Assembly (NCBI GenBank): GCA_963626585.1
Contig: CAVFYC010000003.1
Coordinates: 2,432-66,431 of the forward strand
Reading direction: 5' to 3'
DNA: 64,000 nucleotides
Source: Christensenellaceae bacterium Phil1
GTDB taxonomy: Bacteria > Bacteroidota > Bacteroidia > Bacteroidales > Bacteroidaceae
Below are positions 2,894 through 58,353 of the stretch, in pieces. Numbering within the stretch: the first letter of the stretch is position 1; every line of letters starts with the position of its first letter. The notes under the pieces are model-generated. The model made no database searches and was not told the DNA's origin. It saw nothing but the letters and a program-made list of their open reading frames with translations. The position numbers and the translations under genes are program-made.

Positions 2894-2900
2894 AATATAG

Positions 2901-2992
2901 CAAAAACAACAAGGCTTCTCGTAAAAACTCCGCCGCATCTAATTTAAATTAGATGCGTCGGAATTTAAATTATGTCTGACATCGTTTTTTAC
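2901..2992 (-). repeat. Mosaic palindromic intergenic repeat, copy A (inverted relative to copy B)
   Basis: Plus-strand parse: ACAAGGCTTCT|CGTAAAAACT|CCGCCGCATCT|AATTTAAATT|AGATGCGTCGG|AATTTAAATT|ATGTCTGACAT|CGTTTTTTAC. Words start at 2909, 2930, 2951 and 2972. The copy begins 8 nt after the PAP2 stop. Confidence 0.9.
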
Positions 2993-3295: not shown

Positions 3296-3787
3296 ATGCA
3301 TATGAGAAAAACTTTAGTCACAGTAGTATTCGCAGGGCTTTGCCTAACGGGAGCGTCGGCTCAAGACGTTTTCGTTTACAATGCCGGGAGTGAAAGACCG
3401 CTCCTAACTGTGAACAACTTGCAACGCATCGAGTTTGGTGAAGAGAGCATTTCTTTCTTCCAAACAAATGCTGTCGAAGGCACCCCTGTGGACCTCAACA
3501 GTATTGACTACATGCTCTTCTACGACAGAGAAATTCTGAATTCCGTACGTCCTACGGCAAAATCAGAAGGCGTGAACATCTCTTATGACGGTAGGAACGT
3601 TTCCGTGGAAAGCGTCGAAAACATTTCAAGTATCGACGTGTATTCTTCAGATGGCGTGAAAGTTGCAACTGTATCGCCTAAGGCTAAGAGCGCAAAAGTA
3701 TCTCTTGCTTCCAAACCCGCAGGTGTTTACATCGTGAAGGCAACTGCTGGCAAATCTACGGCAAAAAGTGAAATCGTTAAAAAATGA
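3296..3787 (+). CDS. Small secreted protein with a T9SS (Por) C-terminal sorting domain
   Basis: N-terminal signal peptide (..LTGASAQ). The C-terminus ..SSIDVYSSDGVKVATV..PAGVYIVKATAGKSTAKSEIVKK fits the T9SS CTD pattern. Its stop overlaps the next ATG (ATGA). Confidence 0.7.
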   Translation: MHMRKTLVTVVFAGLCLTGASAQDVFVYNAGSERPLLTVNNLQRIEFGEESISFFQTNAVEGTPVDLNSIDYMLFYDREILNSVRPTAKSEGVNISYDGRNVSVESVENISSIDVYSSDGVKVATVSPKAKSAKVSLASKPAGVYIVKATAGKSTAKSEIVKK

Positions 3788-6700
3788 ACAAGGCCATGAC
3801 ACTCAATCTTATTAAGAAAACACTTCTTGGAGCTGCGTGCATAGCTGTTTTCGGTTTCAACACCAATGCACAGACAATCACCAAGCACATTTACGCTTAC
3901 AAAGACGGCGTGGTAACATTCCGCGCCAACGCAAGCGATGTAGACAGTATAGCACTCGAGGAAAACAAGACCGTGGTTGCGCTCTACAAGCACGGTTCGA
4001 GCACTCCCGTCTACAAGACTAATTATTCCGACATCGACAGTATATCCTTTACAGCTCCCGTGCCGGTGGCTGACATATTGGACGTTATGTTCGACGAAAC
4101 GGGTAACTGTTGGGACAATTCCCCATTGAATCTTCTCGTAACCCCGCTAACAACAAACGGAACGGCAGAAGTTAACTACAACAAGACCTACGAAATGTGG
4201 GAAAGCCATTTCTATGGAGATTCTTGGGGCAGTTCTCCCAAAAACACTTGCTTCAAGGCAGACTATTCCCAGAATGATTACGTTAAGGAGGCACTTTCCG
4301 ACGGCCATTCCATGGAATGTCTCTTCAAGGTGGATTATGACGGCAATATCGTAGACAAAGAAGGAAAATTCTTCGCAGCCCATGAAGGCGGCGGTACAGG
4401 TTTCCTTATCTGCACCAAAGCAAAGAGCCCAAACAATCAGAACGAACTTACATTCCTTCCCAACGTTTCAACAAACGGAAAGAGCAACTGGATTTGGGCA
4501 ACCAGTGGAATTGTTCCGCAGCCCGGAAAATACTATCATTTGGTAGGCGTATATAATAAGGAAGAAGAAAAAGCTTACGTTTATGTTGACGGACAGTTGA
4601 TGAATGTGGTTGATGCAAAAGGCGATTTCCGTCTTCCGTCAAACGAGAAGGCACAATGGTTCGGCATCGGCTGTGATGCAAATACCGGCACCGGCGGCCA
4701 GGCAGTCGACAGCCATGTCGCAATTGCCCGCGTATACGACAAAGCTCTTACTGCAAGCGAAGTAGACGGCCTTTGGAATGAAGTGGCACAAAAATCACAG
4801 CTTCCCGTAGCCGACTTGCTTGATGTGCAATTCACCAAAGACGGCGGCGCAATCGACGTATCGCCGATGAAAAACGAAGTACAGGTTATTTCTCCTACGA
4901 ACAAGATTGAAACCTACTACAATCCTTATTACGGCACGTACGCAGCAAAGATCAACAACACTTGGAGCGGTGCCGTTGCCGACACAAAGACTTACTGCAA
5001 GGTAGATTTTGAGAACAATCAGAAATTCCGCGATGCTCTCGCCGACGGACACACTGTTGAAACCGTATGGAAGGCTACTTACATGGGAGAACTTCCTGAC
5101 AAAGAAGCTAAATGGTTCTCTGCAATGCAGGCAGGCGGTACCGGTTTCCTCATCTGCAAGAAAGCATCAGGCAAAGACGGTGGCAACGAACTTACATTCC
5201 TTCCCAACGTTACCCAGAATGGAAAGAGCAATTGGATTTGGGCAACCAGCGGCGTTGTTCCTGAGGCTGAGAAGTATTACCACATGGTTGGCGTTTGGAA
5301 CAAGGAAGAAGGCAAGGCTTATATCTATGTTAACGGTGAGTTGATGAATACCGTTGATGCGGTGGGCGAACTTAAATTTGCGTCAAGCGGTAGCAATTGG
5401 TGGGGTATCGGTTGTGATGCCAATCCTAAAGGCGGCGAACAAGGCGGTAATTGGGAAATTGTAAACGCTCGTGTATACGACAGCCCGCTTACCGAACACG
5501 AGGTTGCCAATCTTTGGAACAATATTGCCACTGCCACAAAACTTGCAGACGACTCCGTAGCAAAGAATCAGGTTAATCCCGAAGATACAGTTACTGTTCC
5601 AGCTCCTAAGGCTGATTTGATGGATATTGAATTCGGTCCTAACGCAGAAGTAAAAGACGTTGCAGTTCCTGACCACAATCCTACGTGGATGGTAAAAGGC
5701 CAAGCTTGGACTGGCGGAGATGTTGATGATATTTCCAACGCTCCTCTTACTTACTACAACAGCGAATACAACCGTTACGTTGCTCGTTTCGACAATAACT
5801 ATGGTTATAAGCCCAGTCTTTACATTCTTGGTTATGATTATGAGAACGACCAGGCTTTCCAAGATTCCATTGCAGACGGACATACTCTTGAAATTCTCGT
5901 AATGCAGGATAACAGCGATGCAGTTCTCGGCAGAGAGATTAAACCATTCAGCTCGCACGAGGGCGGTGGTACCGGTCTGATGATTGAAACTGCCGGCGAC
6001 TGGACATTCCTTCCCAATACAGGTTCATACGTTTGGTCTACGAGTGGAGTATATCCCAAGCAGAAACAATACTATCACGTGGTTGGCGTATATAATAAGG
6101 AGGAGCAAACCGCTTCGGTGTATGTTGACGGCGTGCTTAAGAACACTGTTCCTGCTACGGGCAACTTCAAGTTTGCTTCAAGCGGTTGCTTGAGAATGAT
6201 TGTCGGTGGCGACCCCGATGGTAGCGATTACAAAGCCAACAATGGCTGGAAGGGCGACATTGTGTTTGCCAAGGCTTACAGCGCACCGCTTACAACTCCG
6301 CAGGTTAAGGCTCTTTACAAAGAAATTGAGGCTTCCAAAGCATCTGCTTCCACTTTCGTAACCGATTACAGCTACAACAATGGCATTGCAGTAAAGAGCG
6401 GCGCTCCGTTTGCTATCACCGGCAAGGGCTTCCAGAGTGGCGACCAAATTATATTCTCCGACGGAACAAACGAAGTGTCTGCTCCCGTAACTGTTACTTC
6501 TACCGGCGCTGAGGTTAACCTTTTCGACGGAATCGTTAACGACAAACGTTATATCATCTACGTTCAGCGTGGCGACAAGAAGCAAACGCTCGGCATGTGC
6601 AAGTTCTTCGTTACCGACGAGTTGCCTCAAGGAACAAAGGTAATTGCTCACCGCGGACATTGGAATGTTACTGGCGCTGCACAAAACTCCAGAGCTTCTC

Positions 6701-7390: not shown

Positions 7391-7433
7391 AATCGGGAGG
7401 GAACTTTTTAAGGTTTTCTCCCGATTTTATTTA
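7391..7433 (+). terminator. Putative intrinsic terminator after the LamG-GDPD gene
   Basis: AATCGGGAG (7391-7399) pairs with CTCCCGATT (7418-7426), followed by TTTATTTAT. Confidence 0.6.
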
Positions 7434-7469: not shown

Positions 7470-7562
7470 TGCTTTTCCGATGTCAGACATAATTTAAATT
7501 CCGACGCATCTAATTTAAATTAGATGCGTCGGAGTTTTTACGAGATGCCTTGTAGTTTTTTT
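7470..7562 (+). repeat. Mosaic palindromic intergenic repeat, copy B (reference orientation)
   Basis: ATGTCAGACAT|AATTTAAATT|CCGACGCATCT|AATTTAAATT|AGATGCGTCGG|AGTTTTTACG|AGATGCCTTGT+AGTTTTTTT. Words start at 7480, 7501, 7522 and 7543. Positions 7501-7532 are a perfect 32-nt palindrome. Confidence 0.92.
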
Positions 7563-7710
7563 GCCCATTCGCTCCTTATTGCGAAAGCCGCAGGACAATC
7601 TGTCTCGCGCCTTTATATTTCGTACGCATAACCCTAACTTTTTCTCCCGAAACAAGCCCGCGACGTGCAAATAGGCAACACCTTTGTGCGTGAAAGCCAA
7701 GAAAAAAACG

Positions 7711-7718
7711 TATATTTG
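7711..7718 (+). promoter_or_regulatory. Bacteroidetes-type -7 box TATATTTG upstream of sucC
   Basis: Matches the TAnnTTTG consensus, 33 nt before the sucC ATG. A TTTG lies upstream at 7683-7686. Confidence 0.6.
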
Positions 7719-7750
7719 CCATAAAATAAAGGACAAATCATAAAAATGAA

Positions 7751-8899
7751 ATGAAAGTACACGAATATCAAGCAAAAATGCTATTCAAGAATTATGGTCT
7801 GCCGGTAGTTGACCAGAATATTCTTTGCCGCACGGTTGACGAAGCCGTAGAGGCATACAGAACCATTGGCGAAGAATACGTTGTGGTCAAGGCTCAGGTT
7901 CATACCGGCGGCCGCGGAAAAGCCGGCGGCGTGAAACTCGCAAAAAGCGAGGACGAAGTGCGCCAATATGCCGGAGCAATTCTTGGAATGGACATAAAAG
8001 GCTTCAAGGTAGACAGAGTGCTCATAACCCAAGCCGTTGACATTGCAGCAGAATACTATGTGAGCATAATTGTAGACCGCAAAACAAAATGCCCAATATA
8101 TATGGTGAGCCGCGCCGGAGGTATGGATATCGAACAGGTGGCTCGCGAAACTCCCGAGAAAATCGAGAAAATAGCTATCGACCCGCTTTTGGGCGCCACA
8201 GACTTCAAGACGCGCGAAGTTGCCTATGCCTTGTTTGACGACAAAGCAGTGGTGAAACAAGCAGTGCCATTGTTGAAAAACCTCTACAAGATGTTTGTTG
8301 AAACCGATGCGTCGCTCGCCGAAATCAATCCGCTCGTCCTTACAAAACAAGGAGAACTCAAAGCGATTGATGCAAAGATGACGTTCGACAACAACGCACT
8401 CTTTCGCCACCCCGAACTGATGCAGTTTAACGAGCCCACCGAAGAGGAGAAAATAGAACAGACTGCAAAATCCAAAGGTTTCAGCTATGTAAACCTTGGA
8501 GGCGAGATAGGCTGCATGGTAAACGGCGCCGGACTCGCAATGGCAACAATGGACATGATTAAACTCTATGGCGGCAGCCCTGCAAACTTCCTTGACATCG
8601 GCGGAAGCTCCAATCCCGAAAAGATAGTGGAGGCAATGAAACTCTTGCTCGCCGACAAACACGTAAAGGTGGTATTGATAAACATCTTCGGCGGAATCAC
8701 CCGTTGCGACGACGTGGCAAAGGGACTCCTCGAAGCATTTGAAATACTCAAGACCGAAATGCCAATCGTAATCCGACTCACCGGAACAAACGAAAAAGAA
8801 GGACAGGAAATCCTCAAAGGCACAAAATTCACCGTGGCAACCACTATGGGCGACGCCGGAAGAAAAGCCGTGGAACTCGCAGCCCAAGTGGCAAAATAA
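7751..8899 (+). CDS. sucC: Succinyl-CoA synthetase (ADP-forming) beta subunit
   Basis: MKVHEYQAKMLFKNYGLPV.. ATP-grasp N-terminus; full-length 382 aa; followed by sucD. Confidence 0.95.
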   Translation: MKVHEYQAKMLFKNYGLPVVDQNILCRTVDEAVEAYRTIGEEYVVVKAQVHTGGRGKAGGVKLAKSEDEVRQYAGAILGMDIKGFKVDRVLITQAVDIAAEYYVSIIVDRKTKCPIYMVSRAGGMDIEQVARETPEKIEKIAIDPLLGATDFKTREVAYALFDDKAVVKQAVPLLKNLYKMFVETDASLAEINPLVLTKQGELKAIDAKMTFDNNALFRHPELMQFNEPTEEEKIEQTAKSKGFSYVNLGGEIGCMVNGAGLAMATMDMIKLYGGSPANFLDIGGSSNPEKIVEAMKLLLADKHVKVVLINIFGGITRCDDVAKGLLEAFEILKTEMPIVIRLTGTNEKEGQEILKGTKFTVATTMGDAGRKAVELAAQVAK

Positions 8900-8932
8900 C
8901 CCACCCCAATCACCAATCAAATATACAAGAAA

Positions 8933-9805
8933 ATGAGCGTATTGATAGATAAGAATTCAAAAGTACTGGTTCAAGGCGTAACCGGTCGCGACGGAAGTTT
9001 CCACGCATTGAAGATGAAAAGCTATGGCACCAATATCGTGGGTGGCACATCTCCCGGCAAAGGCGGACAAAACGTGGAAGGAATTCCCGTGTTCAACACC
9101 GTTGCCGAAGCAGTGGCAAAAACCGGCGCAAACACATCGGTGATTTTCGTTCCCGCGCCATTCGCAAAAGACGCAATGCTCGAAGCAGCCGACGCAGGGA
9201 TTAAACTTATTGTTTGTATAACCGAAGGCGTGCCCGTAATGGACGCCGTAGCCGCACAAAGATACATTAAACTTAAAGGCGCGCACCTTGTAGGCCCCAA
9301 CTGCCCCGGACTTATTTCTCCCGACAAGAGCATGGTGGGCATTCTGCCTGTAGACATATTCAAAAAAGGAGGTACGGGCGTAGTGAGCCGCAGCGGAACG
9401 TTGACCTACGAAATAGTTGACAGCCTAACAAAGAACGGCTTTGGCGAAAGCACGGCTATCGGCGTGGGCGGCGACCCTGTTGTGGGCGTATACTTTGAAG
9501 ATATGCTCCGAATGTTCCAAGACGATCCCGAAACCGACAGCATTGTGCTCGTTGGCGAGATAGGAGGAGACGCCGAGGAACGTGCTGCAAAATTCATCAA
9601 GGAATATGTTACCAAACCCGTAGTAGCTTTCATCTCGGGCAGACAAGCTCCCAAAGGAAAACAGATGGGGCACGCCGGAGCTATAATAACAACCGGCGCA
9701 GGAACGGCCGCAGAAAAAATAGCTGCATTCGAGGCCGTGGGAGTTCCGGTGGCTAAGGAAACAAGCGAGATACCTGTGCTGCTCAAAAAGCTAATGGGCA
9801 AATAA
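8933..9805 (+). CDS. sucD: Succinyl-CoA synthetase alpha subunit
   Basis: MSVLIDKNSKVLVQGVTGRDGSFH.., SRSGTLTYE, and the phosphohistidine loop GHAGAII. Confidence 0.95.
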   Translation: MSVLIDKNSKVLVQGVTGRDGSFHALKMKSYGTNIVGGTSPGKGGQNVEGIPVFNTVAEAVAKTGANTSVIFVPAPFAKDAMLEAADAGIKLIVCITEGVPVMDAVAAQRYIKLKGAHLVGPNCPGLISPDKSMVGILPVDIFKKGGTGVVSRSGTLTYEIVDSLTKNGFGESTAIGVGGDPVVGVYFEDMLRMFQDDPETDSIVLVGEIGGDAEERAAKFIKEYVTKPVVAFISGRQAPKGKQMGHAGAIITTGAGTAAEKIAAFEAVGVPVAKETSEIPVLLKKLMGK

Positions 9806-14474: not shown

Positions 14475-16130
14475 ATGAATTTCAGGGGAAAGGAATACAA
14501 TCTGTCAACTATTTTGCCTTGGATTGGCAAAGCGGTGAGGCATTACAAACTGAAGATATGCGCTACAATTATATTGGGCTGGATTGTTGTTGCACTGAAC
14601 TTTGTTTTTGTGTGGGCAACAAAGCAGGCTGTCGATGCGGCAACGGTAACCCACAACCGTTGGGCGCTTTATTTTTGCTGTGCAACGCTTGTAGCCACGA
14701 TAATAGTGCAGGCTGTGGTTTCGGCAATCAACAAACGAATAAAAACAATGCTCGGTTTCTGCATGAACAGGCGTATGCAGGAAAGGCTGTTGCATCATGC
14801 GGTTTCGGTTAACTGGAAAAGCATCAACGAATACCATACCGGCGACCTTGTGAGGCGTTTTGAGCAGGACGGATACGAGGTCGTTTCGTTTGTGAACGGA
14901 ACAATTCCAACTATAATGCTTGTGTTGCTGCAATTGGCAGGCGCTTTTCTTTTTCTCCTTGTTTTGAACAAGCAAATAGCCCTTGCCCTTGTTGTGATAA
15001 TGCTTGCTGGCGTGTTTATAAGCAAGTTTCATTTTTTGAAAATCCGTGGGTTTTCGGCCAAAATCAAGGAAGGCGGAAGCATGTTGCAGGCTGCTTTGCA
15101 GGAGGGGCTGCAAAATATTTCCGTGCTCAAGTCTTTGGCGGGCAAGAACGTATTTGCGAAATACTATTCCCATATCTTCGACATACAAGAAGGCAATGTG
15201 AGGCGACGCCTCCGGTATTCCGTGTTGTCGTCAACGGTTTTGAACCTCGGTTTTGCGGCTTGCTATCTTTTTGTCTTCATCTGGGGAGTGTTTAATCTCG
15301 ATTCGGGCGCAATTACCTACGGCACACTTATGGCATTCGTGCAGCTGGTGGGGCAGATACAAGGACCTTCGCGCACGCTCATCAATTCCATTTCAGATTT
15401 TGCCGAGTTTTATTCTTCGTGTGAGCGGTTGAATGAAATCGACTCCATACCTGCCGAAGACGATGCCGAATGTGTGAACGACGTAAAGGCAAGTTGTAGT
15501 GTGCTTTGTGAGAAAGTGTCGTATCGATATGCCGACGGCAAACGAATGGTATTGGACGGATTCAGCCATAGTTTTGAACCAGGAAAACTCAGCGCCATTG
15601 TCGGTGCAACGGGAGCGGGAAAAACCACGCTCATGCGCCTTTTGCTTGCCTACGTCAAGCCTTATGCGGGGAAACTGTATGTAGTGAGCGGAGATGAAAA
15701 GCGGGAGATAGGAGTTGGAACGCGCGGGTTGTTTGCCTATGTGCCTCAGGGGAATTCCTTGTTCAGCATGTCGTTGCGCGACAATATGCTTTTGGCAAAT
15801 CCCGAAGCGTCGGACGCTGAAATGCTTGAGGCCATGAAATGGGCGTGCGCCGATTTTGTGGAACACAATGCCGAGGGGCTCGACACACTCTGCGGCGAGG
15901 GAGGCAGAGGTCTGTCGCAGGGCCAGGCGCAACGCTTGTGCATAGCCCGGGCTTTGGTTTCGCGCGCCCCGATATTGCTGATGGACGAATCGACATCGGC
16001 TTTGGACCACGCCACAGAGGAGAAAATCATTCAGAACATACGCCAAAATGTGAAAGACAAGACTATTCTTTTCATCACCCACCGCGACACTGTGATAAAA
16101 TACGCCGATGAGGTGGTGAAAATAGGCTAA
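14475..16130 (+). CDS. ABC transporter, fused permease/ATP-binding (MsbA-like exporter)
   Basis: N-terminal 6-TM domain; Walker A GATGAGKTT, signature LSQGQAQR, Walker B LLMDES. ATG 14475 is preferred over the overlapping ORF-track start at 14394. Confidence 0.88.
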   Translation: MNFRGKEYNLSTILPWIGKAVRHYKLKICATIILGWIVVALNFVFVWATKQAVDAATVTHNRWALYFCCATLVATIIVQAVVSAINKRIKTMLGFCMNRRMQERLLHHAVSVNWKSINEYHTGDLVRRFEQDGYEVVSFVNGTIPTIMLVLLQLAGAFLFLLVLNKQIALALVVIMLAGVFISKFHFLKIRGFSAKIKEGGSMLQAALQEGLQNISVLKSLAGKNVFAKYYSHIFDIQEGNVRRRLRYSVLSSTVLNLGFAACYLFVFIWGVFNLDSGAITYGTLMAFVQLVGQIQGPSRTLINSISDFAEFYSSCERLNEIDSIPAEDDAECVNDVKASCSVLCEKVSYRYADGKRMVLDGFSHSFEPGKLSAIVGATGAGKTTLMRLLLAYVKPYAGKLYVVSGDEKREIGVGTRGLFAYVPQGNSLFSMSLRDNMLLANPEASDAEMLEAMKWACADFVEHNAEGLDTLCGEGGRGLSQGQAQRLCIARALVSRAPILLMDESTSALDHATEEKIIQNIRQNVKDKTILFITHRDTVIKYADEVVKIG

Positions 16131-16189: not shown

Positions 16190-16213
16190 GCCCGTCTAAA
16201 ACGGGCGTTTTTT
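16190..16213 (+). terminator. Intrinsic terminator after the ABC exporter
   Basis: GCCCGT-CTAAA-ACGGGC followed by GTTTTTT. Confidence 0.7.
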
Positions 16214-16215
16214 GT

Positions 16216-16309
16216 GGCTTTTACGAGGTCAGACATAATTTAAATTCCGCCGCATCTAATTTAAATTAGATGCGGCGGAGTTTTTACGAGATGCCTTGTA
16301 GTTTTTCCC
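16216..16309 (+). repeat. Mosaic palindromic intergenic repeat, copy C
   Basis: GGCTTTTACG|AGGTCAGACAT|AATTTAAATT|CCGCCGCATCT|AATTTAAATT|AGATGCGGCGG|AGTTTTTACG|AGATGCCTTGT. Words start at 16226, 16247, 16268 and 16289. Both palindrome arms carry a matched substitution. Confidence 0.92.
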
Positions 16310-18969: not shown

Positions 18970-21900
18970 TTGAAAAAAATATCAGCGATAGTATTAGCCG
19001 TAGTAGCCTGCGGCTATCTGTTGCTGTTGCTCATTGCGGATATGCCGTTTGTCCAAAAAAAAATGGCAGATTATTTTTCCGAGACCTTGGAAAATAAATT
19101 CGGCACGGAAGTAAAAATAGGTAAGGTTCAGCTTGGATTGTTTAACTCGGTAATTTTTGATGATGTCGAAATAAAAGACCAAGAAAGCCGCAAACTTTTA
19201 ACAGCTGAGAAACTATCTGCAAAAATACAATTGCGCTCGTTGGCGATAGCTCCTATAACAATTAGGACAATAGAACTTTATCGTGCCAATCTTAACCTGA
19301 GAAAGAAAAACGAAGCCAGCCAATATAATTTCCAGTTTATAATAGATTCTCTTTCCTCGGAGAATAAGGAAGAAAAATCATCGCTTGATCTCAAGATAAA
19401 ATCTGTTATACTTAGCAGGTGCAATATAAACTACGACTTGCTAAGCAAACCTTCAAAGCCGACTTTCGATGTAAATCATCTGGCTTTTAGTAATCTCGAT
19501 GCCAGCGTTGGAATTCATGTGATAAAGGGCGATAGCTTTAATGTCAAGTTGCGCAATATCGCTTTCCAAGAAAAGAGTGGATTTGTCTTGGAGAAATGTT
19601 ATGCAAACGCTTCCTTCGGAAAGAAAAATATAGAGATTCCAATTCTAAAACTGAAAACATCTAACGGAAGTCTGGTTGCAAAAAAAATATCATTGACATC
19701 AGACAAAGAAAAAAAGTATTCCGGCGGTGGTGAATTGGAACGATTTCGTCTTTCTCTAAAAGGAATTCGCCCTTTCTTAGGAAAAGATTTGCCGAACGAA
19801 ACTTTTGACATAAGCGCTTCGATACGCGTAAACCGCAACAGGATTACAATTCCAAATTTACGCGTGGCAGAACGTGAAAGAAACGTTTTGCTGCGTGCTA
19901 AGATTGACTTCGAAAATACACAGCGGTTCTTTGTCGATCTAAAAGAACTTAAAGTAAAGCAGGAGTTTGTAAATTCTATCGCAAGATCTTTGGAAGTAAA
20001 TGAAAGCGTAGGAAATGTCGTAAAAAATATAGGTGATGTAAATATTTCTGCCGACATTTTACGTGGAAAACAAACTAAGGTAAATGCAAAAATTGGAACA
20101 GGTATCGGAACCGGCGATGTTGCGATGAGTATTGACGAGAATAAATGTATTGATGTAAGAATTATTTCTCCGAACATTGATATAGGAAAACTTGTGTCCA
20201 ATGAAGATTGGGGTAAAGCTGATTTTAATGCGGAAGCAAGTGTAAAAGACCAAAAAGATTTTTCCTTAAAGTTGAAACTCGCAAGTTTGGAATTTAAGAA
20301 ATATGTCTACAAAAACATTTCGGCAGAGGTTCAAAACAATAAAGATGTAGTTTCTTTTGCGGTCAGTTCCCTTGATCCGAATGTGATTTTGAACGCCAAA
20401 GGAAAAGCGAACGTCCAAGATAAACATATGCCGGAATATAAGTTGGAGGCCGTGGTTAATAAATTTAATCCGGAAGCACTTCGTTTGAGTGAAAAATATC
20501 CTCGAGCAGATTTCTCGGCAAAGATAAATGCTGATATAAAGGGTAACGACATAAAGAATGCTATAGGTTCATTTAATCTCTCTGATTTTTCTGTAGCAAA
20601 TGCTGATACAACGATTAATTTTGGAGATGTAGCAATTAGTTCCAATAATGTAAGTAATGGGAAGCGTATTGTTTTGTCGGGGAATGTATGCGATGCACAA
20701 CTTACGGGAAAGTTTAATACAGAAACTTTGATGCGTAATTTTCTGCACATAGTAAATGCCCAAAACGAAGAAAAAACAATTTGTTCTGACGACAATATTT
20801 TTAATTTTAGAATGCATTTAAAAGATGTCTCGTTGTTGAATTTCCTCGTAGGTTCTGATATAAAATTGTCCCAGGGAGGTGTGGCTTCGGGATACATGGA
20901 TTCGCGCGAAGGACTGTTCCAATTTGAAGCTGCGATACCGGCGGCAATAAAAGGAGAAGATAAGTTTTCTGATATGACTTTATATATGAAAGGAAATAAA
21001 CTGAATACCAAAATGCATCTCCATGCTTCAAAACTTTTGGAGAACGGAAAGGTAGAAATAGAATCGAATGCGGAAAACAAAAACGGAGAACTGGAAAATA
21101 ACTTGCTGTGGAAATCAACTGCAGAACATAGAAATTCGGGAGAAATATCTCATGTCATAAGAATTAATCCTTCTACTCCCAATCATATAGAAACAGAGAT
21201 AAAACCTTCGATTATAGTAATAGACGATACGGTGTGGAATATTTCGGCATCAAAAATAATTTACGACAACTCAAAACTTTATATAGATGGGTTGAGTTTT
21301 AAGCATGGTAATAGTGGACTTTCGTTAAATGGAATTGCATCTAAACAAAGTTGCGATTCTTTGCAGGTAGATCTTCATAATGTCAGAATACAAAACGTGC
21401 TTGATTTTGTAGCTTTTGATGACGTGCATTTTGATGGGCAGGCAAACGGTATTGCAAACGTCTCAAATGTATTGGGCGCACCGCATGTAAATGCTGCTTT
21501 GAACGTGAAAGATTTTGTGTTCAATCACGCAAAAATGGGAGATATGGTTCTTGACAGTTATTGGAACAACGATACAAAAAAAATAGAACTCTCTGCGTTG
21601 ATACGCGATGGACAAAATTCTACGAACGTAAGTGGGTTCGTGAATCCTGCAGAAAGTAGTATTGACTTGCGATTTATTTCTAATGGAACCAATGCTTTGT
21701 TTCTAAATGATTTTTTCCCCGATGCGATGCAACTTTCGCAAGGAAGGACTACAGGGAATTTGCGATTGTTCGGAAACCTGCATGCAATGAACCTGGAAGG
21801 CAGACATGTTGTTTCTGGTCTAAAAGTACATGTAGAGCCTTTGGGTACAAATTATACAATTGATAATGATACGGTTTATTTCTCTCCAGATTTGATATCT

Positions 21901-26270: not shown

Positions 26271-26442
26271 TTATTCTTCGTTCTAATGCGGTTATGATAT
26301 TTGTAAGCGAATTTAGCCAAAAAGTTTGTAACGTTGGAAAGTTTAGGGCATTAGTTTTTGATTTTTGCAGTTAAATTTGTCGTAGGCTGTTGTGGGCTGT
26401 TTTTCTTACGTGGATTATTGTAATATTCAGCATGATAGATAT

Positions 26443-26534
26443 AGCAAAAACTCCGACGCATCTAATTTAAATTAGATGCGTCGGAATTTAAATTTGGTGG
26501 CCCGGAGTTTTTACGAGAAGCCTTGTTGTTTTTT
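26443..26534 (+). repeat. Mosaic palindromic intergenic repeat, copy D
   Basis: AGCAAAAACT|CCGACGCATCT|AATTTAAATT|AGATGCGTCGG|AATTTAAATT|TGGTGGCCCGG|AGTTTTTACG|AGAAGCCTTGT+TGTTTTTT. Words start at 26453, 26474, 26495 and 26516. Confidence 0.92.
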
Positions 26535-26581
26535 AGAGGTATGTTTTAGCCCCAAAATGTAGCGATATAGGAAATGCGTGC

Positions 26582-32195: not shown

Positions 32196-32291
32196 AGATG
32201 CGTTGTCGTAAAAACTCCGGGCCATGTAATTTAAATTAGATGCGTCGGAATTTAAATTAGGTCTGATATCGTTTTAAAACATGTCTGACCT
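32196..32291 (-). repeat. Mosaic palindromic intergenic repeat, copy E
   Basis: AGATGCGTTGT|CGTAAAAACT|CCGGGCCATGT|AATTTAAATT|AGATGCGTCGG|AATTTAAATT|AGGTCTGATAT|CGTTTTAAAAC|ATGTCTGACCT. Words start at 32196, 32217, 32238, 32259 and 32281. It lies in the divergent ileS/regulator gap. Confidence 0.88.
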
Positions 32292-36633: not shown

Positions 36634-36678
36634 AGGAAATCAGGTCTTAAACAAAGGGTTTCTGATAACGGAAAAATA

Positions 36679-36780
36679 CTATCGGACATCGTTTTTACGA
36701 TGTCCGATAGTGTTTAAATTATGTCTGACATCGTTTAAATTATGTCAGACATAGTTTTTGTGATATCAAATGTAGTTTTC
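36679..36780 (+). repeat. Mosaic palindromic intergenic repeat, copy F (variant vocabulary)
   Basis: CTATCGGACAT|CGTTTTTACG|ATGTCCGATAG|TGTTTAAATT|ATGTCTGACAT|CGTTTAAATT|ATGTCAGACAT|AGTTTTTGTG|ATATCAAATGT. Words start at 36679, 36700, 36721, 36742 and 36763. Positions 36678-36711 form a perfect 14-bp stem. Confidence 0.8.
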
Positions 36781-36810
36781 TGCAATAGGCAGATTGCTTT
36801 TTTCTTCGCA

Positions 36811-39668: not shown

Positions 39669-40763
39669 TCAGTTGAGTGAGGAAATATATTCCTTCATGT
39701 CGTTTTCTTGTTGCTCGGCGCTCAGGAACAGTTTGAATTGCGCCTTGGCCCTCACCAGATTGTGTTCGGGATATTCGGTGCGGAAATAGGTGTCGCCGTT
39801 GAGATAGTCGGCAAGGAATCTCACAGTCTGCATATAGGGGAAGAGTTCTGCTGCATAGGGCAGATTGTCTTTCTCTATGGGTGTGAGGAATGCGCTTGCG
39901 GTTTTGAGGTATCCTTTGGTGAATGCCTTGAATATCTCGAGATTGAAATTAACTTTGCTTAAATCCGGTTCGTCTTCTTTTGAAGTGTTGGCTGCATAGC
40001 GCAGAAAATCGCCGAAATCGGAGAATACGTAGCTTGGCATCACTGTGTCGAGATCGATGACGCACAAAACTTTGTCGGTATGGGCATCAAACATCATGTT
40101 GTTGACTTTTGTGTCGCAGTGGCAGATACGTTTCGGAAGTTTTCCCTCTCTGTGCAGGCGTTCGGCGAGAGTCATTTTCTCGGCGCGGCTTTCTATTTCG
40201 TCTATAAATTCTTTCACGCCTTCTGCTCTCCCCGACAGGTTGTCTTTCACAGCGTCGCGGAGTTGTTGCAGGCGGAATTCCATGTTGTGGAAGTCTTTGA
40301 TTGTCTCACCAAGTTCCACGGGAATGTCGGCAAGCATGGCTTCGAAATTGCCGAATGCCTCGCCCACGGTGTAGGAACTTTCGGGGGTAACGGCTTCTTT
40401 GGTTATGGCATCTGGAATATAGACCATAATGCGCCAATATTTCCCGGATTCAAACAGATAGTATTTATCGTTTTCGTCTTTTAGCGGAACGAAACGTAGG
40501 CATTTGCGCTCGATGTCGGTTTCGCCGGCCTCGGTGAGTTTCTTGCGGATATGGTTGGTTACGGCAATGATGTTGCGCATAAGCAAGTCGATATCGGGGA
40601 AAACTGCGTGGTTGATACACTGCAACACGTAGTCGGGCGCGTTGTCTTGTGTGGTAACTTTGTAGGTAGAGTTGATTAAACCGTTGCCAAGGGGCTTGAT
40701 GTCTTCAATTTTTCCCGTGATGGCAAATTTGCTTACGATAGTTTTTAGGATTTCTTGTTCCAT
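39669..40763 (-). CDS. APH-family phosphotransferase (NahK/sugar anomeric kinase-like)
   Basis: ..GNGLINSTYKV.., catalytic loop ..ICHCDTKVNNMMF.. and ..IDLDTV.. ATG 40763 is used because a -7 box overlaps the ORF-track start at 40793. Confidence 0.75.
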   Translation of the reverse strand: MEQEILKTIVSKFAITGKIEDIKPLGNGLINSTYKVTTQDNAPDYVLQCINHAVFPDIDLLMRNIIAVTNHIRKKLTEAGETDIERKCLRFVPLKDENDKYYLFESGKYWRIMVYIPDAITKEAVTPESSYTVGEAFGNFEAMLADIPVELGETIKDFHNMEFRLQQLRDAVKDNLSGRAEGVKEFIDEIESRAEKMTLAERLHREGKLPKRICHCDTKVNNMMFDAHTDKVLCVIDLDTVMPSYVFSDFGDFLRYAANTSKEDEPDLSKVNFNLEIFKAFTKGYLKTASAFLTPIEKDNLPYAAELFPYMQTVRFLADYLNGDTYFRTEYPEHNLVRAKAQFKLFLSAEQQENDMKEYISSLN

Positions 40764-40790
40764 GTTATTCTCTGTTAGTTTGTTCTTTTG

Positions 40791-40798
40791 CAAATGTA
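40791..40798 (-). promoter_or_regulatory. -7 box TACATTTG (minus strand) upstream of the kinase gene
   Basis: The plus strand reads CAAATGTA, 28 nt upstream of ATG 40763. Confidence 0.55.
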
Positions 40799-40911
40799 CG
40801 TAAAAACGGCGAAAGCGCCTATTTTACCGGGAATAAAATGCTTTGTACAGCACGATAGAGTGGGGCATATTTTGAACGTTTGTAATATGTTGTAAATCAG
40901 ACGTGCTTTTT

Positions 40912-41016
40912 CGCGAAAACGATGTCTGACATAATTTAAATTCCGACGCATCTAATTTAAATTAGGTCTGACCTAGTTTTTACGATATCAGATGTTTTTT
41001 CAAAAAGATGCCTTGT
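40912..41016 (+). repeat. Mosaic palindromic intergenic repeat, copy G
   Basis: CGCGAAAACG|ATGTCTGACAT|AATTTAAATT|CCGACGCATCT|AATTTAAATT|AGGTCTGACCT|AGTTTTTACG|ATATCAGATGT|TTTTTCAAAA|AGATGCCTTGT. Words start at 40922, 40943, 40964, 40985 and 41006, each exactly 21 nt apart. Confidence 0.92.
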
Positions 41017-41032
41017 TATATTTTCTACTTCG

Positions 41033-41040
41033 TATTTTTG
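41033..41040 (+). promoter_or_regulatory. -7 box TATTTTTG upstream of the DUF6377 regulator gene
   Basis: TAnnTTTG match, 24 nt before ATG 41064 and 16 nt after the last word of repeat G. Confidence 0.55.
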
Positions 41041-41063
41041 CATTTTCAGAATAAGAGAGAAAT

Positions 41064-42770
41064 ATGATTTTCAGCAATTACGTGGCAAAAACGTCAGGCA
41101 GGGGAGGGCTCGAAACGTGGGGTTTGCCGATAAAGATAGTGTTTTCTTTGATTTTTGTATGGTTGGCTTCTTCACCAAGTCTGTTTGCCGAATCGTGTCA
41201 TACCATGTGTGCCGAAAAAGATTTGAAGACTTTGGACTCTGTTGTGGCAAAGCGAGATGTGTATGACGCGAAAAAACTCGAAGCCATTGCCAAAATCAAA
41301 CAGAGAATATCCATTTATATCTCGCCGCAGGACCAATACAATTATTATAAGCAACTGTATGACGAATATCTGAAGTTCAATGCAGACTCAGCCATGCATT
41401 ATGCCGAAAAGGAGAAAGCTGTGGCACGGCAAAACAACTTTGAAGATTTGTATCTGCTGGCTATGATTGACGAAGCGTATGTTGTTACCCTTCAAGGCGA
41501 TATGCTGAAAGCCAGAAACATTATGGACAAGATAGGACGCATTGAAACCGTTCCGCAATGCGCCCGAACAAAGTTGGCAATGCTCAACCTTGAATTCTAC
41601 ATGCGGGCAATACAAGTGGGATTCTACAAACCGGTGATGACTCAGGCATATGAACTCTACGACAAATACAGCGGATATCTTCCCGACAATATGTGGCAGA
41701 AAAACTACTACGGGGTGATGTTTCTGAAACTGGACAAGTTTTCCGAACTAACGGAGGAATTGAAAAAAACAAAGCAACCGTCTCCCAAGGCCGCAATGCT
41801 GTGCGTTGCAATATCAAGGCTCTGCTGGACAAAAAAAGACATCGGCAATTATCTGCACTATCTTATTCTCTCGGCAATCAACGATATTTGCTCTTCAAAC
41901 AAGGAAGCATCGTCGCTCTTGTTTCTCGTTTCTTCGCCATACTCAAATCTCGACACAGACAGGGCTTTCAATTACGTGATGGTGTGCAACGAAAATGCCA
42001 ATGCTTTTAAGGACGTGATGAGAAGCGTGGAAGTTGTAAATGCACATACAAAGATTACACGAGATTATCAGAGAAAGTTGCAACAGAAAACGCATTTCCT
42101 TTACGGAGTAATAGGACTGTTGGCGCTCGCAGTGGTCGCAATTTGGTTGTTGATGAGAAACGTGGTGAAGAAACGCCGCAAACAAGATTCTTTGCTGAAA
42201 AAGCTGGAGCAGATGAACCATTCGCTCGAAACAATGGTGGAGAAAGAATCAGTGATGAAAAGCAAACTCGAAAAATCGAACGGTTTGCTTAAAAGGGAAA
42301 TCACTTACCATAACCAAAACTTCATAAATGTTTACCAACTTGTAACGAAGTATATAGCCGAGGTGCAGGAGTTTCGAAAAATGGTCTATAATCTCGTAAC
42401 TGCCAGCAAATATAGCAAGGCGCGCCAGGAACTTCTTTCAAACGCCAACTCGGAAAAATATCTCAAAAACTTCTTTGAGCATTTCGACAAGGCATTCCTT
42501 CTTTCCCACCCCGATTTCGTGAGCCGTTTCAACGCTCTTCTAAAACCCGGCCACGAGATAATTCCGCAGGAAAAAGGAAAGCTCACACCCGAGTTGCGCA
42601 TTTATGCTCTTGTGAGCCTTGGCGTAACCGACAGTGTGAGCATTGCCCAATTCTTACACTATTCTACACAGACCGTATATAACTATCGTTTAAAAGTTAG
42701 ACACTCGTCGTGTATTCCAGAAAAGTCGTTTGCAGAAACTGTGGCTAAAATGTATGAGAATGAAGCTTAG
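41064..42770 (+). CDS. DUF6377-like membrane-anchored transcriptional regulator (TPR-like N-domain, TM, coiled coil, C-terminal HTH)
   Basis: TM helix near residue 350 (..LYGVIGLLALAVVAIWLLM). C-terminus ..LTPELRIYALVSLGVTDSVSIAQFLHYSTQTVYNYRLKVR is typical of this Bacteroidetes regulator family. Confidence 0.75.
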   Translation: MIFSNYVAKTSGRGGLETWGLPIKIVFSLIFVWLASSPSLFAESCHTMCAEKDLKTLDSVVAKRDVYDAKKLEAIAKIKQRISIYISPQDQYNYYKQLYDEYLKFNADSAMHYAEKEKAVARQNNFEDLYLLAMIDEAYVVTLQGDMLKARNIMDKIGRIETVPQCARTKLAMLNLEFYMRAIQVGFYKPVMTQAYELYDKYSGYLPDNMWQKNYYGVMFLKLDKFSELTEELKKTKQPSPKAAMLCVAISRLCWTKKDIGNYLHYLILSAINDICSSNKEASSLLFLVSSPYSNLDTDRAFNYVMVCNENANAFKDVMRSVEVVNAHTKITRDYQRKLQQKTHFLYGVIGLLALAVVAIWLLMRNVVKKRRKQDSLLKKLEQMNHSLETMVEKESVMKSKLEKSNGLLKREITYHNQNFINVYQLVTKYIAEVQEFRKMVYNLVTASKYSKARQELLSNANSEKYLKNFFEHFDKAFLLSHPDFVSRFNALLKPGHEIIPQEKGKLTPELRIYALVSLGVTDSVSIAQFLHYSTQTVYNYRLKVRHSSCIPEKSFAETVAKMYENEA

Positions 42771-45391: not shown

Positions 45392-45475
45392 TGATTTTAC
45401 GACATCGGATATCGCGAAAACTAGGTCAGACATAATTTAAACTAGGTCTGATATAATTTAAACTAGATGCCTTGT
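45392..45475 (+). repeat. Mosaic palindromic intergenic repeat, copy H (AATTTAAACT spacer variant)
   Basis: TGATTTTACG|ACATCGGATAT|CGCGAAAACT|AGGTCAGACAT|AATTTAAACT|AGGTCTGATAT|AATTTAAACT|AGATGCCTTGT. Words start at 45402, 45423, 45444 and 45465. Confidence 0.85.
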
Positions 45476-45503
45476 CGTTTTATTGTTTTTTAGGTGCTGA
45501 ATT

Positions 45504-51211: not shown

Positions 51212-51284
51212 AGCGGCAAACGAGACTCGGACTCGCGACCTCAACCTTGGCAAGGTTGCGCTCTACCAACTGAGCTATTGCCGC
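51212..51284 (-). tRNA. tRNA-Gly (anticodon GCC)
   Basis: Minus strand reads GCGGCAATAGCTCAGTTGGTAGAGCGCAACCTTGCCAAGGTTGAGGTCGCGAGTCCGAGTCTCGTTTGCCGCT. It folds as a cloverleaf with a 7-bp acceptor stem and anticodon loop TTGCCAA; CCA is not encoded. Confidence 0.9.
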
Positions 51285-51466: not shown

Positions 51467-51580
51467 GGGTTTTACGAGATGCGTTTGGCGCTTTTACGAG
51501 GTCAGACATAATTTAAATTCCGACGCATCTAATTTAAATTTCATGGCCCGGAGTTTTTACGAGATGCCGTGTTGTTTTTG
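51467..51580 (+). repeat. Mosaic palindromic intergenic repeat, copy I
   Basis: GGGTTTTACG|AGATGCGTTTG|GCGCTTTTACG|AGGTCAGACAT|AATTTAAATT|CCGACGCATCT|AATTTAAATT|TCATGGCCCGG|AGTTTTTACG|AGATGCCGTGT. Words start at 51477, 51499, 51520, 51541 and 51562. There is no complementary word pair. Confidence 0.9.
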
Positions 51581-51679
51581 CAGGGTGGATTTTCCGCTTT
51601 CCAAGAGGTATATTGGGGACAGAAAAAAGGGTATAGAACTAAATAAATGGGGTGGGGCGCGTGTTTTGTTCTGTTTTCG

Positions 51680-58144: not shown

Positions 58145-58239
58145 CAACATACTGTAAAAAATCCCGGTTTCGATGGCAGCCGTTCTTGTAGGGAGAGAAA
58201 TGCTGTAAGGGGAATAAATACAATAAGTTAAGCCTTGTA

Positions 58240-58270
58240 AACACATTCTCCAAGAATGTGTTTTTTCTTT
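58240..58270 (+). terminator. Intrinsic terminator
   Basis: AACACATTC-TCCAA-GAATGTGTT followed by TTTTCTTTT. Confidence 0.65.
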
Positions 58271-58353
58271 TGCCGCATTTCGTGAAAACGATGTCAGACA
58301 TAATTTAAATTCCGACGCATCTAATTTAAATTAGGTCTGACATCGGAAAAACG
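58270..58353. repeat. Mosaic palindromic intergenic repeat, copy J (symmetric form)
   Basis: (TTGCCGCATTT)|CGTGAAAACG|ATGTCAGACAT|AATTTAAATT|CCGACGCATCT|AATTTAAATT|AGGTCTGACAT|CGGAAAAACG. Words start at (58270), 58291, 58312 and 58333. Confidence 0.88.

Follow-up and report, generated by a model that had tools for sequence, protein, structure and literature searches.

The 105 bases at 40912-41016 are part of array G (40912-41026), one copy of a high-copy repeat family in an uncultured Prevotellaceae bacterium of the gut, and are located between two divergent genes, which encode an APH-like kinase (39669-40793, minus strand) and a SusR-like regulator (41064-42770, plus strand). The window, by which we mean the whole analyzed stretch of 64 kb, is an ordinary Bacteroidales chromosome that encodes the SusR-like regulator, IleRS, Ugd, SecG, LptE, TamB, and LeuA. 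The nearest named relative of the window IleRS, at 86% identity, was "MAG: Prevotellaceae bacterium", and an exact look-up of the SusR-like protein returned no match.

The building block of the arrays is a 21-bp module consisting of an 11-bp GC-rich word and a 10-bp AT-rich spacer, and each array contains 3-6 modules. Four word classes were defined by regular expressions: A (AKRTCNGAYMT), B (AGATGCGKCGG), C (AGATGCCKTGK), and D (WSRTGGCCCGG). The words of classes B, C, and D have the form ANRTG-S-CYYGK and are asymmetric, with '+' and '-' denoting their orientation, and near-palindromes, of the form AKRTC-N-GAYMT, are found only among the A-type words. The palindromic spacer AATTTAAATT is referred to as S1. 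The features of array G are as follows.

40912..41026, no strand: array G, five 11-nt words with 10-nt spacers, from the sequence reading
40933..40963, no strand: core motif AATTTAAATT-ccgacgcatct-AATTTAAATT, the palindromic spacer S1 on both sides of a B word in '-' orientation
41006..41016, plus strand: outer C+ word AGATGCCTTGT of array G, from the comparison with the sister species

The five words of array G are atgtctgacat (40922), ccgacgcatct (40943), aggtctgacct (40964), atatcagatgt (40985), and agatgccttgt (41006), and the sequence reads exactly as the earlier note had stated, with word starts 21 nt apart. The spacers between them are, in order, AATTTAAATT, AATTTAAATT, AGTTTTTACG, and TTTTTCAAAA, and the array is flanked by CGCGAAAACG before and TATATTTTCT after. 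In the single-stranded DNA fold of array G (z -3.9), A word pairs with A word and spacer with spacer, and the B word forms the loop. The 31-mer of the core motif also occurs in arrays B, I, and J. The outer C+ word is the sole array G word that is unchanged in the sister species. It is placed where the -33 element of the downstream promoter would presumably fall, and TATTTTTG, ~17-25 nt beyond this word, is what we take to be a candidate TAnnTTTG -7 box, both on the basis of the Bacteroides promoter consensus.

The ten copies in the window (A-J) were delimited and parsed by hand. The other nine arrays are listed below.

2899..2992, no strand: array A, C- / CGTAAAAACT / B- / S1 / B+ / S1 / A word
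7470..7563, no strand: array B, A / S1 / B- / S1 / B+ / AGTTTTTACG / C+ / AGTTTTTTTG
16216..16309, no strand: array C, word order as in array B, with the paired variant ccgCcgcatct / agatgcgGcgg
26432..26536, no strand: array D, B- / S1 / B+ / S1 / D+ / AGTTTTTACG / C+ variant
32196..32291, no strand: array E, agatgcgttgt / CGTAAAAACT / D- / S1 / B+ / S1 / A / 11-nt spacer / A
36669..36783, no strand: array F, A-type words only, with the spacers CGTTTTTACG, TGTTTAAATT, CGTTTAAATT, and AGTTTTTGTG
45392..45485, no strand: array H, A-like / CGCGAAAACT / A / AATTTAAACT / A / AATTTAAACT / C+
51467..51582, no strand: array I, agatgcgtttg / 11-nt spacer / A / S1 / B- / S1 / D+ / AGTTTTTACG / C+
58281..58353, no strand: array J, A / S1 / B- / S1 / A

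Register and orientation grammar of the arrays

In the hand parse of the ten window arrays, 32 of the 34 word-to-word steps were 21 nt and the other two were 22 nt. The earlier note had counted 31 of 33 intervals at 21 nt, and the near-invariance that it described is confirmed. The two 22-nt steps that it had placed in arrays E and I were found again, one in each, and each was caused by an 11-nt spacer. The regular expressions of the four classes matched 35 words in the window, compared to a mean of 1.5 in shuffles, and the distance between successive matched words was 21 nt in 22 cases, 22 nt once, and 42 nt once. S1 was present in 16 exact copies, always paired at 21 nt, and the motif AATTTAAATT-N11-AATTTAAATT occurred eight times in the window compared to 0 in 100 dinucleotide shuffles. 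The middle word of all eight motifs was a B word, three times in '+' and five times in '-' orientation. The shuffle counts of the words and of the S1 motif ruled out chance or low complexity as the origin of the arrays, and the 21-nt register is far beyond chance.

The register was also followed in related genomes by a family scan, in which one genome per species was used and the spacer pair served as the seed. The word steps outside the seeded spacer in these loci were 21 nt in 74 cases and 22 nt in nine, which indicated that the register holds far outside the window. It was found in ~90 further arrays of related genomes, and also in other Prevotellaceae, whose words differ. Variable spacing across genomes had been named as the sign that the register reflects no more than recent common ancestry; the spacing survives in related genomes and in other genera with different words.

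Both of the previously proposed spacer classes, S1 and the oriented spacers, exist. The spacers consist of two 5-nt halves (AATTT+AAATT, AGTTT+TTACG, and CGTAA+AAACT), and the class of a linker depends on the ends of the adjoining words. In the dyad layout, '-' words and A-run spacers (CGTAAAAACT) form the left arm, '+' words and T-run spacers (AGTTTTTACG) form the right arm, and CGTAAAAACT is the exact reverse complement of AGTTTTTACG. The two arms join at the palindromic S1, which looks like a fusion of two half-spacers. The spacer intermediates AGTTTAAATT and AATTTAAACT were also found. The arms are thus inverted in the manner of terminal inverted repeats, ACAAGGCATCT-CGTAAAAACT ... AGTTTTTACG-AGATGCCTTGT.

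The orientation of the words was then compared with that expected under independent flips. Among the 58 arrays with at least two oriented words, 51 showed the order (-)*(+)*, compared to 28.6 ± 3.6 expected. The orientation strings were mostly -++, --+, -+, and -+++, with a single switch per array. Moreover, the edge words read outward from S1 had the '+' form in ~90% of cases (...CGG then AGTTTTT). The order and the edge-word orientation ruled out free, independent flipping of the words, which had been claimed previously. The centre base of the A words was T or A in a ratio of 32:8, and a 'flip' of such a near-palindromic word alters the central base only.

The commonest word order was A / B- / B+ or D+ / C+. 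Conservation by column faded outward without a sharp end, and some copies continued the period with further word types. In arrays built solely of A words (F, H, and those of the sister species that have TATTTAAAAA spacers), the 21-nt units repeat directly in tandem, and arrays that include B, C, or D words combine unlike words in a dyad. Over ~100 arrays, both the register and the dyad grammar are maintained.

Gene context and folding

All ten window arrays were intergenic, and they occupied ~10 of the 14 gaps longer than ~125 nt. Their density of 10 in 64 kb corresponds to about one array per 5-6 kb. The gene contexts were co-directional, convergent (F), or divergent (E, G, and I). Array A begins directly 3' of the stop codon of ORF 2183-2893, array E lies between the divergent genes of IleRS (minus strand) and a sigma54 activator (plus strand), and array I lies between a tRNA gene (51212-51284, minus strand) and ORF 51718 (plus strand). 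Ordinary hairpin-plus-T-run terminators, distinct from the arrays, were found just upstream of array B (7391-7426) and adjoining array C (16190-16206), and a hairpin of this kind with a T-run after it, recognised by eye and outside the terminator scan, was present just upstream of array J. These terminators indicated that the arrays sit between a terminator and the next promoter. Selfish DNA that is tolerated typically lies in such positions, from terminator to promoter or between divergent genes.

Seven of the ten arrays folded as single strands beyond shuffles, with z from -3.4 to -11. Besides array G, the values were -3.4 for A, -7.3 for B, -7.0 for C, -5.3 for D, -7.9 for J, and -11 for F, which consists of two strong hairpins with convergent genes on either side. 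Arrays H (z -1.3) and I (z -0.65), in which the earlier note had seen no complementary word pair, indeed showed no significant hairpin, and the same was true for array E (z -1.9). Two fold architectures were observed, X- / spacer / X+, and A / spacer / a word as the loop / spacer / A. To evaluate the pairing of neighbours, adjacent core words of 67 cores were compared with slot-preserving shuffles. Pairing of at least 9 of the 11 positions was found in 45% of cases compared to 41% in the shuffles, and perfect pairing in 30% compared to 23%. Since this complementarity is barely above that of the shuffles, the hairpin potential largely follows from the dyad layout and from how few words are in use.

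These data bear on the reading of the arrays as bidirectional multi-tier intrinsic terminators, insulators, or stabilisers of mRNA 3' ends, in which the words of the left and right arms would pair in the transcript and a U-run (AGUUUUU) would follow each right-arm word, likewise on the other strand. The arrays do resemble bidirectional intrinsic terminators in their A-run, GC-rich stem, AT loop, and T-run, with the polarity of A-run, stem, and T-run exactly as in such terminators, and several copies lie at gene ends. In arrays B and C, the B-/B+ hairpins were marked as terminator-like by a consensus scan, A, D, and F provide the only hairpins downstream of their genes, the first hairpin of array F was changed on both arms between species, and the seven folding arrays reached z of -3.4 or below. 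However, many copies are stemless, lie in divergent promoter regions, or stand beside a distinct terminator. A stable GC-rich stem with a T-run directly after it, downstream of a transcription unit, was present in parts of arrays A, B, C, D, and F and not in E, G, H, and I; divergent genes flank E, G, and I, leaving nothing to terminate there; B, C, and J have a distinct ordinary terminator just upstream; and E, H, and I fold no better than shuffles. The lack of enrichment in adjacent-word complementarity (45 vs. 41% and 30 vs. 23%) and of an Rfam family match also speaks against this reading, which we regard as quite improbable.

As a general rule, the terminator was ruled out by the divergent-gene contexts and the distinct adjoining terminators, and the hairpin by the three unfolded arrays and by neighbour complementarity not above slot-preserving shuffles. 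The earlier view that a simple hairpin or terminator model does not suffice is therefore upheld by the non-folding copies, the unenriched neighbour complementarity, and the divergent-gene contexts. In the Rfam search, the whole window gave one tRNA only at the gathering thresholds of the families, and the region 40850-41060 gave nothing credible at E ≤ 10; no known RNA family was found in the arrays.

Distribution and change between species

The spacer pair was found in dozens of unrelated loci of the MAG CAVKYH01, with words exactly as in the window, and also in CAVIQL01 and CAVKJJ01. Judged from how far it is from CAVIQL01 (87.6-88.7% nucleotide identity), CAVKYH01 probably belongs to the species of the window or to one very near it. 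The CAVIQL01 bin is mislabelled 'Clostridiaceae'. In total, 93 arrays were counted in 445 kb of array-seeded loci.

In two genomes of the same species (L096, 99.3% identity, and L087, 98.2%), arrays E, F, and G were structurally identical and differed by SNPs only, and the SNP load of the arrays was roughly that of the rest of the DNA. Among the strains of one species, neither presence/absence nor module-number polymorphism was detected in the arrays, so that any current mobility is putative.

The arrays of the sister species (L088 and L090, 85.5-87% identity) were present at all four orthologous sites, with TATTTAAAAA or TTTTTAAATA as spacers. The array G of the sister species lacked one 21-nt module (ccgacgcatct + AATTTAAATT) that the window array has, array H had one module more than in the window, and array E had an equal module count with two different words. 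In array F, the change on both arms of the first hairpin was noted above. Two further orthologous pairs (X and Y, L055 vs. L005) were fully recomposed. Altogether, the array was kept at 6 of 6 orthologous sites compared between species (85.5-88.7% identity). The neighbouring intergenic DNA was 62-69% identical between species, and the words were near-perfect matches to each genome's own vocabulary. These results indicated that the copies were homogenised or renewed since the species split, in whole-module steps.

More distant Prevotellaceae (L095 and L103-L105) carried ACAAGGCACTT / ATTTTAAAAT / AAGTGCCTTGT with a period of 21 nt, and Alloprevotella, Prevotellamassilia, and CAVKJJ01 combined S1 with their own 11-mers. 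In L092 and L093, 22-nt arrays were found, and the same architecture with other words was also seen in an abundant Prevotellaceae MAG. No copies of the family were found among the viral sequences of IMG/VR, the phages of INPHARED, or the plasmids of PLSDB, and a phage or plasmid origin was ruled out accordingly. A flank-pattern search of JGI metagenomes for the orthologous locus G gave chance matches only.

Origin of the arrays and comparison with known systems

The family most likely behaves as DNA that is selfish and recombines, and it is not a proven device for protein binding or regulation. More specifically, we give about an even chance to the reading that the arrays form a lineage-specific REP/BIME- or MITE-like mosaic repeat family, which evolves module by module and is homogenised within each genome, with the register being inherited. 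In this proposed mechanism, the arrays would be dispersed by trans-acting mobilisation, as in REP/REPIN or MITE elements, and slippage or unequal exchange between similar modules would add or remove whole modules. Homogenisation may proceed by ectopic gene conversion or recombination via the common spacers and words, or by re-insertion into pre-existing arrays; gene conversion and re-insertion predict the data alike. Because all of these events would act on whole modules, the 21-nt register would be inherited automatically, and selection for helical phase would be unnecessary. Any capacity to form hairpins or cruciforms, and any influence on termination, insulation, or promoters, would then be a by-product, perhaps co-opted at single sites. 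The putative mobility of single modules rests on one 21-nt difference, that between array G and its counterpart in the sister species.

A mobilising gene was sought in the sampled DNA. As a weak test, tblastn with RAYT/YafM and IS608 TnpA sequences against the window and the fetched loci (~0.45 Mb from carriers) gave no transposase hit below E = 0.6. The genes tightly bracketed by arrays were ordinary, namely GH16, aspartate-semialdehyde dehydrogenase, a porin, a flavin reductase, and a weak RelE-like ORF, with no mobilising gene among them. Furthermore, the arrays compared showed no direct target-site duplication, their flanks being inverted rather than direct, and no empty site.

The ends of Tn7, Mu, and Tn5053 carry several ~20-22-bp sites in inverted sets. 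By analogy, the arrays may be discrete MITEs, whose inverted arms would be arrays of transposase-binding sites moved by a DDE transposase encoded elsewhere. Inverted sets of direct ~21-bp modules are indeed present, the fixed order A B- B+ C+ recurs in arrays B and C and in several CAVKYH01 loci, a ~90-nt element occurs at three sites of L103, and a composite element occurs at two loci of L005. However, the ends are fuzzy and the module number is variable, and the outer words read 5'-ACA...TGT-3', compared with element ends of 5'-TG...CA-3' in the transposase group of the Tn7/Mu/Tn5053 type. Neither a direct target duplication nor a transposase gene was found in the sampled DNA, and the plasmid, phage, and viral collections contained no copies. 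We regard discrete MITEs as very improbable.

The arrays were also considered as phased binding sites, on which a dimeric or oligomeric protein, such as a nucleoid-associated protein, a domesticated transposase, or a global regulator, would occupy the 11-bp words. Each word would comprise two 5-bp half-sites and a central base, the sites would lie two turns apart on one face of the helix, the AT-rich TTTAAA-centred spacer would serve as a flexible hinge, and the arrays would mark operon boundaries and co-evolve with the protein. That words spaced by 21 bp lie on the same helix face is true geometrically, and binding itself is predicted. Several observations favour such sites. The spacing of 21 (or 22) nt is kept across genera as the words change, and S1 appears again in Alloprevotella and Prevotellamassilia. 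The words have a 5+1+5 form, with A words reading ANRTC-N-GAYNT and '+' words sharing the left half ANRTG, and their outward orientation is fixed. In addition, the retention of the array at all six orthologous sites, the near-perfect words of each genome amid diverged neighbouring DNA, and the occupation of ~10 of the 14 longer intergenic gaps would fit a bound element. On the other hand, no protein emerged as a candidate, copies differ with little constraint in the order and identity of their words and in how many modules they have, and SNPs within species are about as frequent in the arrays as elsewhere. Curvature, which the earlier note had proposed to predict, was unremarkable: in an approximate wedge-model estimate with Bolshoy parameters, the arrays were modestly above average (percentiles 1-41), with no strong intrinsic curvature. 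In addition, whole-module turnover accounts for the register without selection. We consider phased binding sites unlikely.

The 21-bp module may also be the unit of an active, dedicated process, either an ultra-small copy-and-paste or templated rewrite of the current words, or phased docking sites at operon boundaries, although we think this unlikely. In the first version, arrays that already exist would receive the genome's current 11-nt words in register, with the palindromic AT-rich spacers between them staying fixed. In the second, a fast-evolving Prevotellaceae DNA-binding protein would mark most operon boundaries.

The retention at 6 of 6 orthologous sites, together with the cross-genus register and the AT-rich palindromic spacer, could equally reflect functional selection.

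Among known systems, the family works most like the BIME/REPIN mosaics (PMC3116915). REPINs are RAYT-mobilised inverted doublets with a short spacer that form hairpins in single-stranded DNA and occur in hundreds of extragenic copies; they also build higher-order clusters, in which new copies insert into or beside existing ones (PMC3116915). The arrays share with REP/BIME elements a high copy number, a strictly intergenic location, few oriented unit types, few linker types of fixed length, frequent hairpins, a position after genes, and a variable unit number. Thus, the earlier analogy with BIMEs is apt for a mosaic of short units and linkers scattered in intergenic DNA, but it fails for the defining features of unit and alternation. 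The REP/BIME unit is an imperfect palindrome with its own stem-loop, the PU being ~35-40 bp (~20-40 bp), whereas the array unit is an 11-nt word, and REP/BIME units alternate strictly, whereas the arrays follow (-)*(+)* with one switch. The arrays further differ by the absence of a GTAG-type tag, the rigid 21-nt period, the Prevotellaceae host, and the failure to find a RAYT. Compared to REPINs, ~45% of the array cores have no complementary word pair and complementarity is unenriched over shuffles, the modules are far shorter, and no flanked RAYT gene was seen in the sampled (partial) DNA.

The BrickBuilt MITE/minisatellite of Porphyromonas gingivalis is intergenic, with a 23-nt tandem unit and 19 copies per genome, and consists of direct repeats of identical type without spacers, between long leader and tail segments (PMC4596501). 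It resembles the arrays in its Bacteroidales host, its invariably intergenic position, its unit of about two turns (23 nt, compared to 21 nt in the arrays), its variable unit number, and its small inverted-repeat ends. Unlike BrickBuilt, the arrays have mixed word classes, a dyad layout, palindromic spacers, and a density of about one per 5-6 kb.

The small dispersed repeats (SDR) of Nostoc, said to have been described by Elhai et al. in Genome Res in 2008 (cited in PMC3116915), are reportedly 21-27 nt long. Like the modules, these ~21-nt units appear as insertions between orthologous regions and nest in their own copies or in tandem repeats. They differ in their cyanobacterial host, are unrelated in sequence, and are not known to have a fixed word/spacer register or a dyad layout.

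Plasmid iterons and paired ARG boxes are short sites repeated at 21-22 bp on one helix face, and the arrays resemble them in having short units at 21-22 bp that look like binding sites. Iterons are direct repeats beside a rep gene at one origin. The iteron analogy drawn previously does not apply to ten arrays dispersed over a 64-kb housekeeping chromosome (IleRS, Ugd, SecG, LeuA, and TamB), and iterons were ruled out by this context, the mixed word classes, and the absence of a rep gene. A CRISPR-like array, in which a constant repeat alternates with unique spacers at one locus that also has a leader and cas genes, was also ruled out, since the 11-mers are drawn from a vocabulary of ~4 classes that is reused at every locus, and the arrays are dispersed and contain 3-6 units.

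A search of the literature on the motif, on intergenic repeats of Bacteroidales and Prevotella, and on MITEs found no description of the family, which is apparently undescribed so far. The Prevotellaceae belong to the most abundant bacteria of the gut, and hardly any of their non-coding DNA has been explored. Two features of the family stand out, namely its strict grammar, with a 21-bp register, dyad orientation, and small vocabulary, and the rewriting of words in register between sister species. Were the family no more than selfish, it would offer a clean natural system for the study of concerted evolution and module-wise turnover of very short repeats, and it would also be a practical nuisance or a marker for assembly, strain typing, and the annotation of promoters and terminators in MAG-dominated lineages. 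Should a protein bind the arrays or a dedicated mechanism write them, they would represent a new system of operon boundaries or genome organisation. Either version of the dedicated process acting on modules, if true, would add a genome-wide system of a new kind to a group that is dominant among gut bacteria.

Array F and altered word pairs

The region of the window holding array F, which lies between convergent genes (36634-36810), is orthologous to 8784-9499 of locus L088 and 7680-8351 of locus L090, both fetched from the sister species. In these two loci, a 22-bp minisatellite gagaccgtggtgtcctggcaaa of approximately 11-13 copies sits within the array F region. The minisatellite is absent from the window. 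This minisatellite looks similar to BrickBuilt, the MITE/minisatellite of Porphyromonas gingivalis with a 23-nt tandem unit. Moreover, both arms of the first hairpin of array F differ between the species, being ctatcggacatcg/cgatgtccgatag in the window (36679-36710) and aataggacatcg/cgatgtcctatt in L088 (approximately 8820-8850), and the perfect pairing is kept. This change on both arms is a sign either that the stem is under selection or that the palindrome corrects itself.

Altered pairs were also observed among the B words. Arrays A and C (window 2930-2961 and 16247-16278), separated by 13 kb, both contain the variant ccgCcgcatct. Its partner is also altered in array C (agatgcgGcgg) and is unaltered in array A. 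A pair with both words altered (tcgccgcatct/agatgcggcga) was found in L073, a locus of the metagenome-assembled genome CAVIQL01.

Periodic arrays in other genomes

The public record of CAVIQL01 (L001, L005, L073-L075, and L090) bears the name "Clostridiaceae bacterium Marseille-Q4149". It harbours Bacteroidales genes that are in synteny with those of the window, with protein identities of 86-96%, and the bin appears to be mislabelled. In L005, one composite element is present at two loci (approximately 3590-3900 and 6300-6520), in which an array of A words is followed by TAGAAAACGCGGTTTTTACATCRTTTTTTACG and then by an array of B+/tggKggcttgg/... words. The orthologous sites of CAVKYH01, probably the window's own or a very close species, carry arrays of different composition.

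In the abundant Prevotellaceae species represented by L103, a four-word element of approximately 90 nt is near-identical at 15586-15690 and 20820-20920, and a variant of it occurs at a third site, all three lying within 23 kb. The array family in this species looks like a discrete element.

Arrays with a 22-nt period and unrelated sequence are present in relatives whose Ugd is 87-88% identical (L093 6673-7026; L092 4366-4701). The L093 array, with cores of GACACGTG, is intergenic and precedes the sigma54-activator gene on its upstream side, as does array E in the window. The L092 array, located downstream of Ugd, consists of tgaaatgcgct plus ttttgtaaaaa repeated four times, and a shorter related array (L092 1-154) lies upstream of the sigma54-activator gene of that locus. 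In addition, an uncultured Bacteroidales contig (L037, approximately 2640-2850) carries a long array of AATNTAAATT plus 11 nt with a 21/42-nt period, which may be coding or unrelated to the family in the window.

Neighbours of the arrays and the putative promoter at array G

Ordinary hairpin-plus-T-run terminators lie directly upstream of arrays B (window 7391-7426), C (16190-16206), and J (approximately 58238-58275, identified by eye only). The arrays may be preferentially located, or inserted, beside terminators. Array I adjoins a tRNA gene, the sole Rfam match in the window:
51212-51284, minus strand, tRNA gene

Array G lies between the divergent genes of an APH-like kinase and a SusR-like regulator, and its final word is AGATGCCTTGT. 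Within window 41006-41040, this word takes the position expected for the -33 element of the putative promoter of the SusR-like gene, with TATTTTTG as the candidate -7 box. Since AGATGCCTTGT is the sole word of array G unchanged in the sister species, it may have been co-opted into this promoter.
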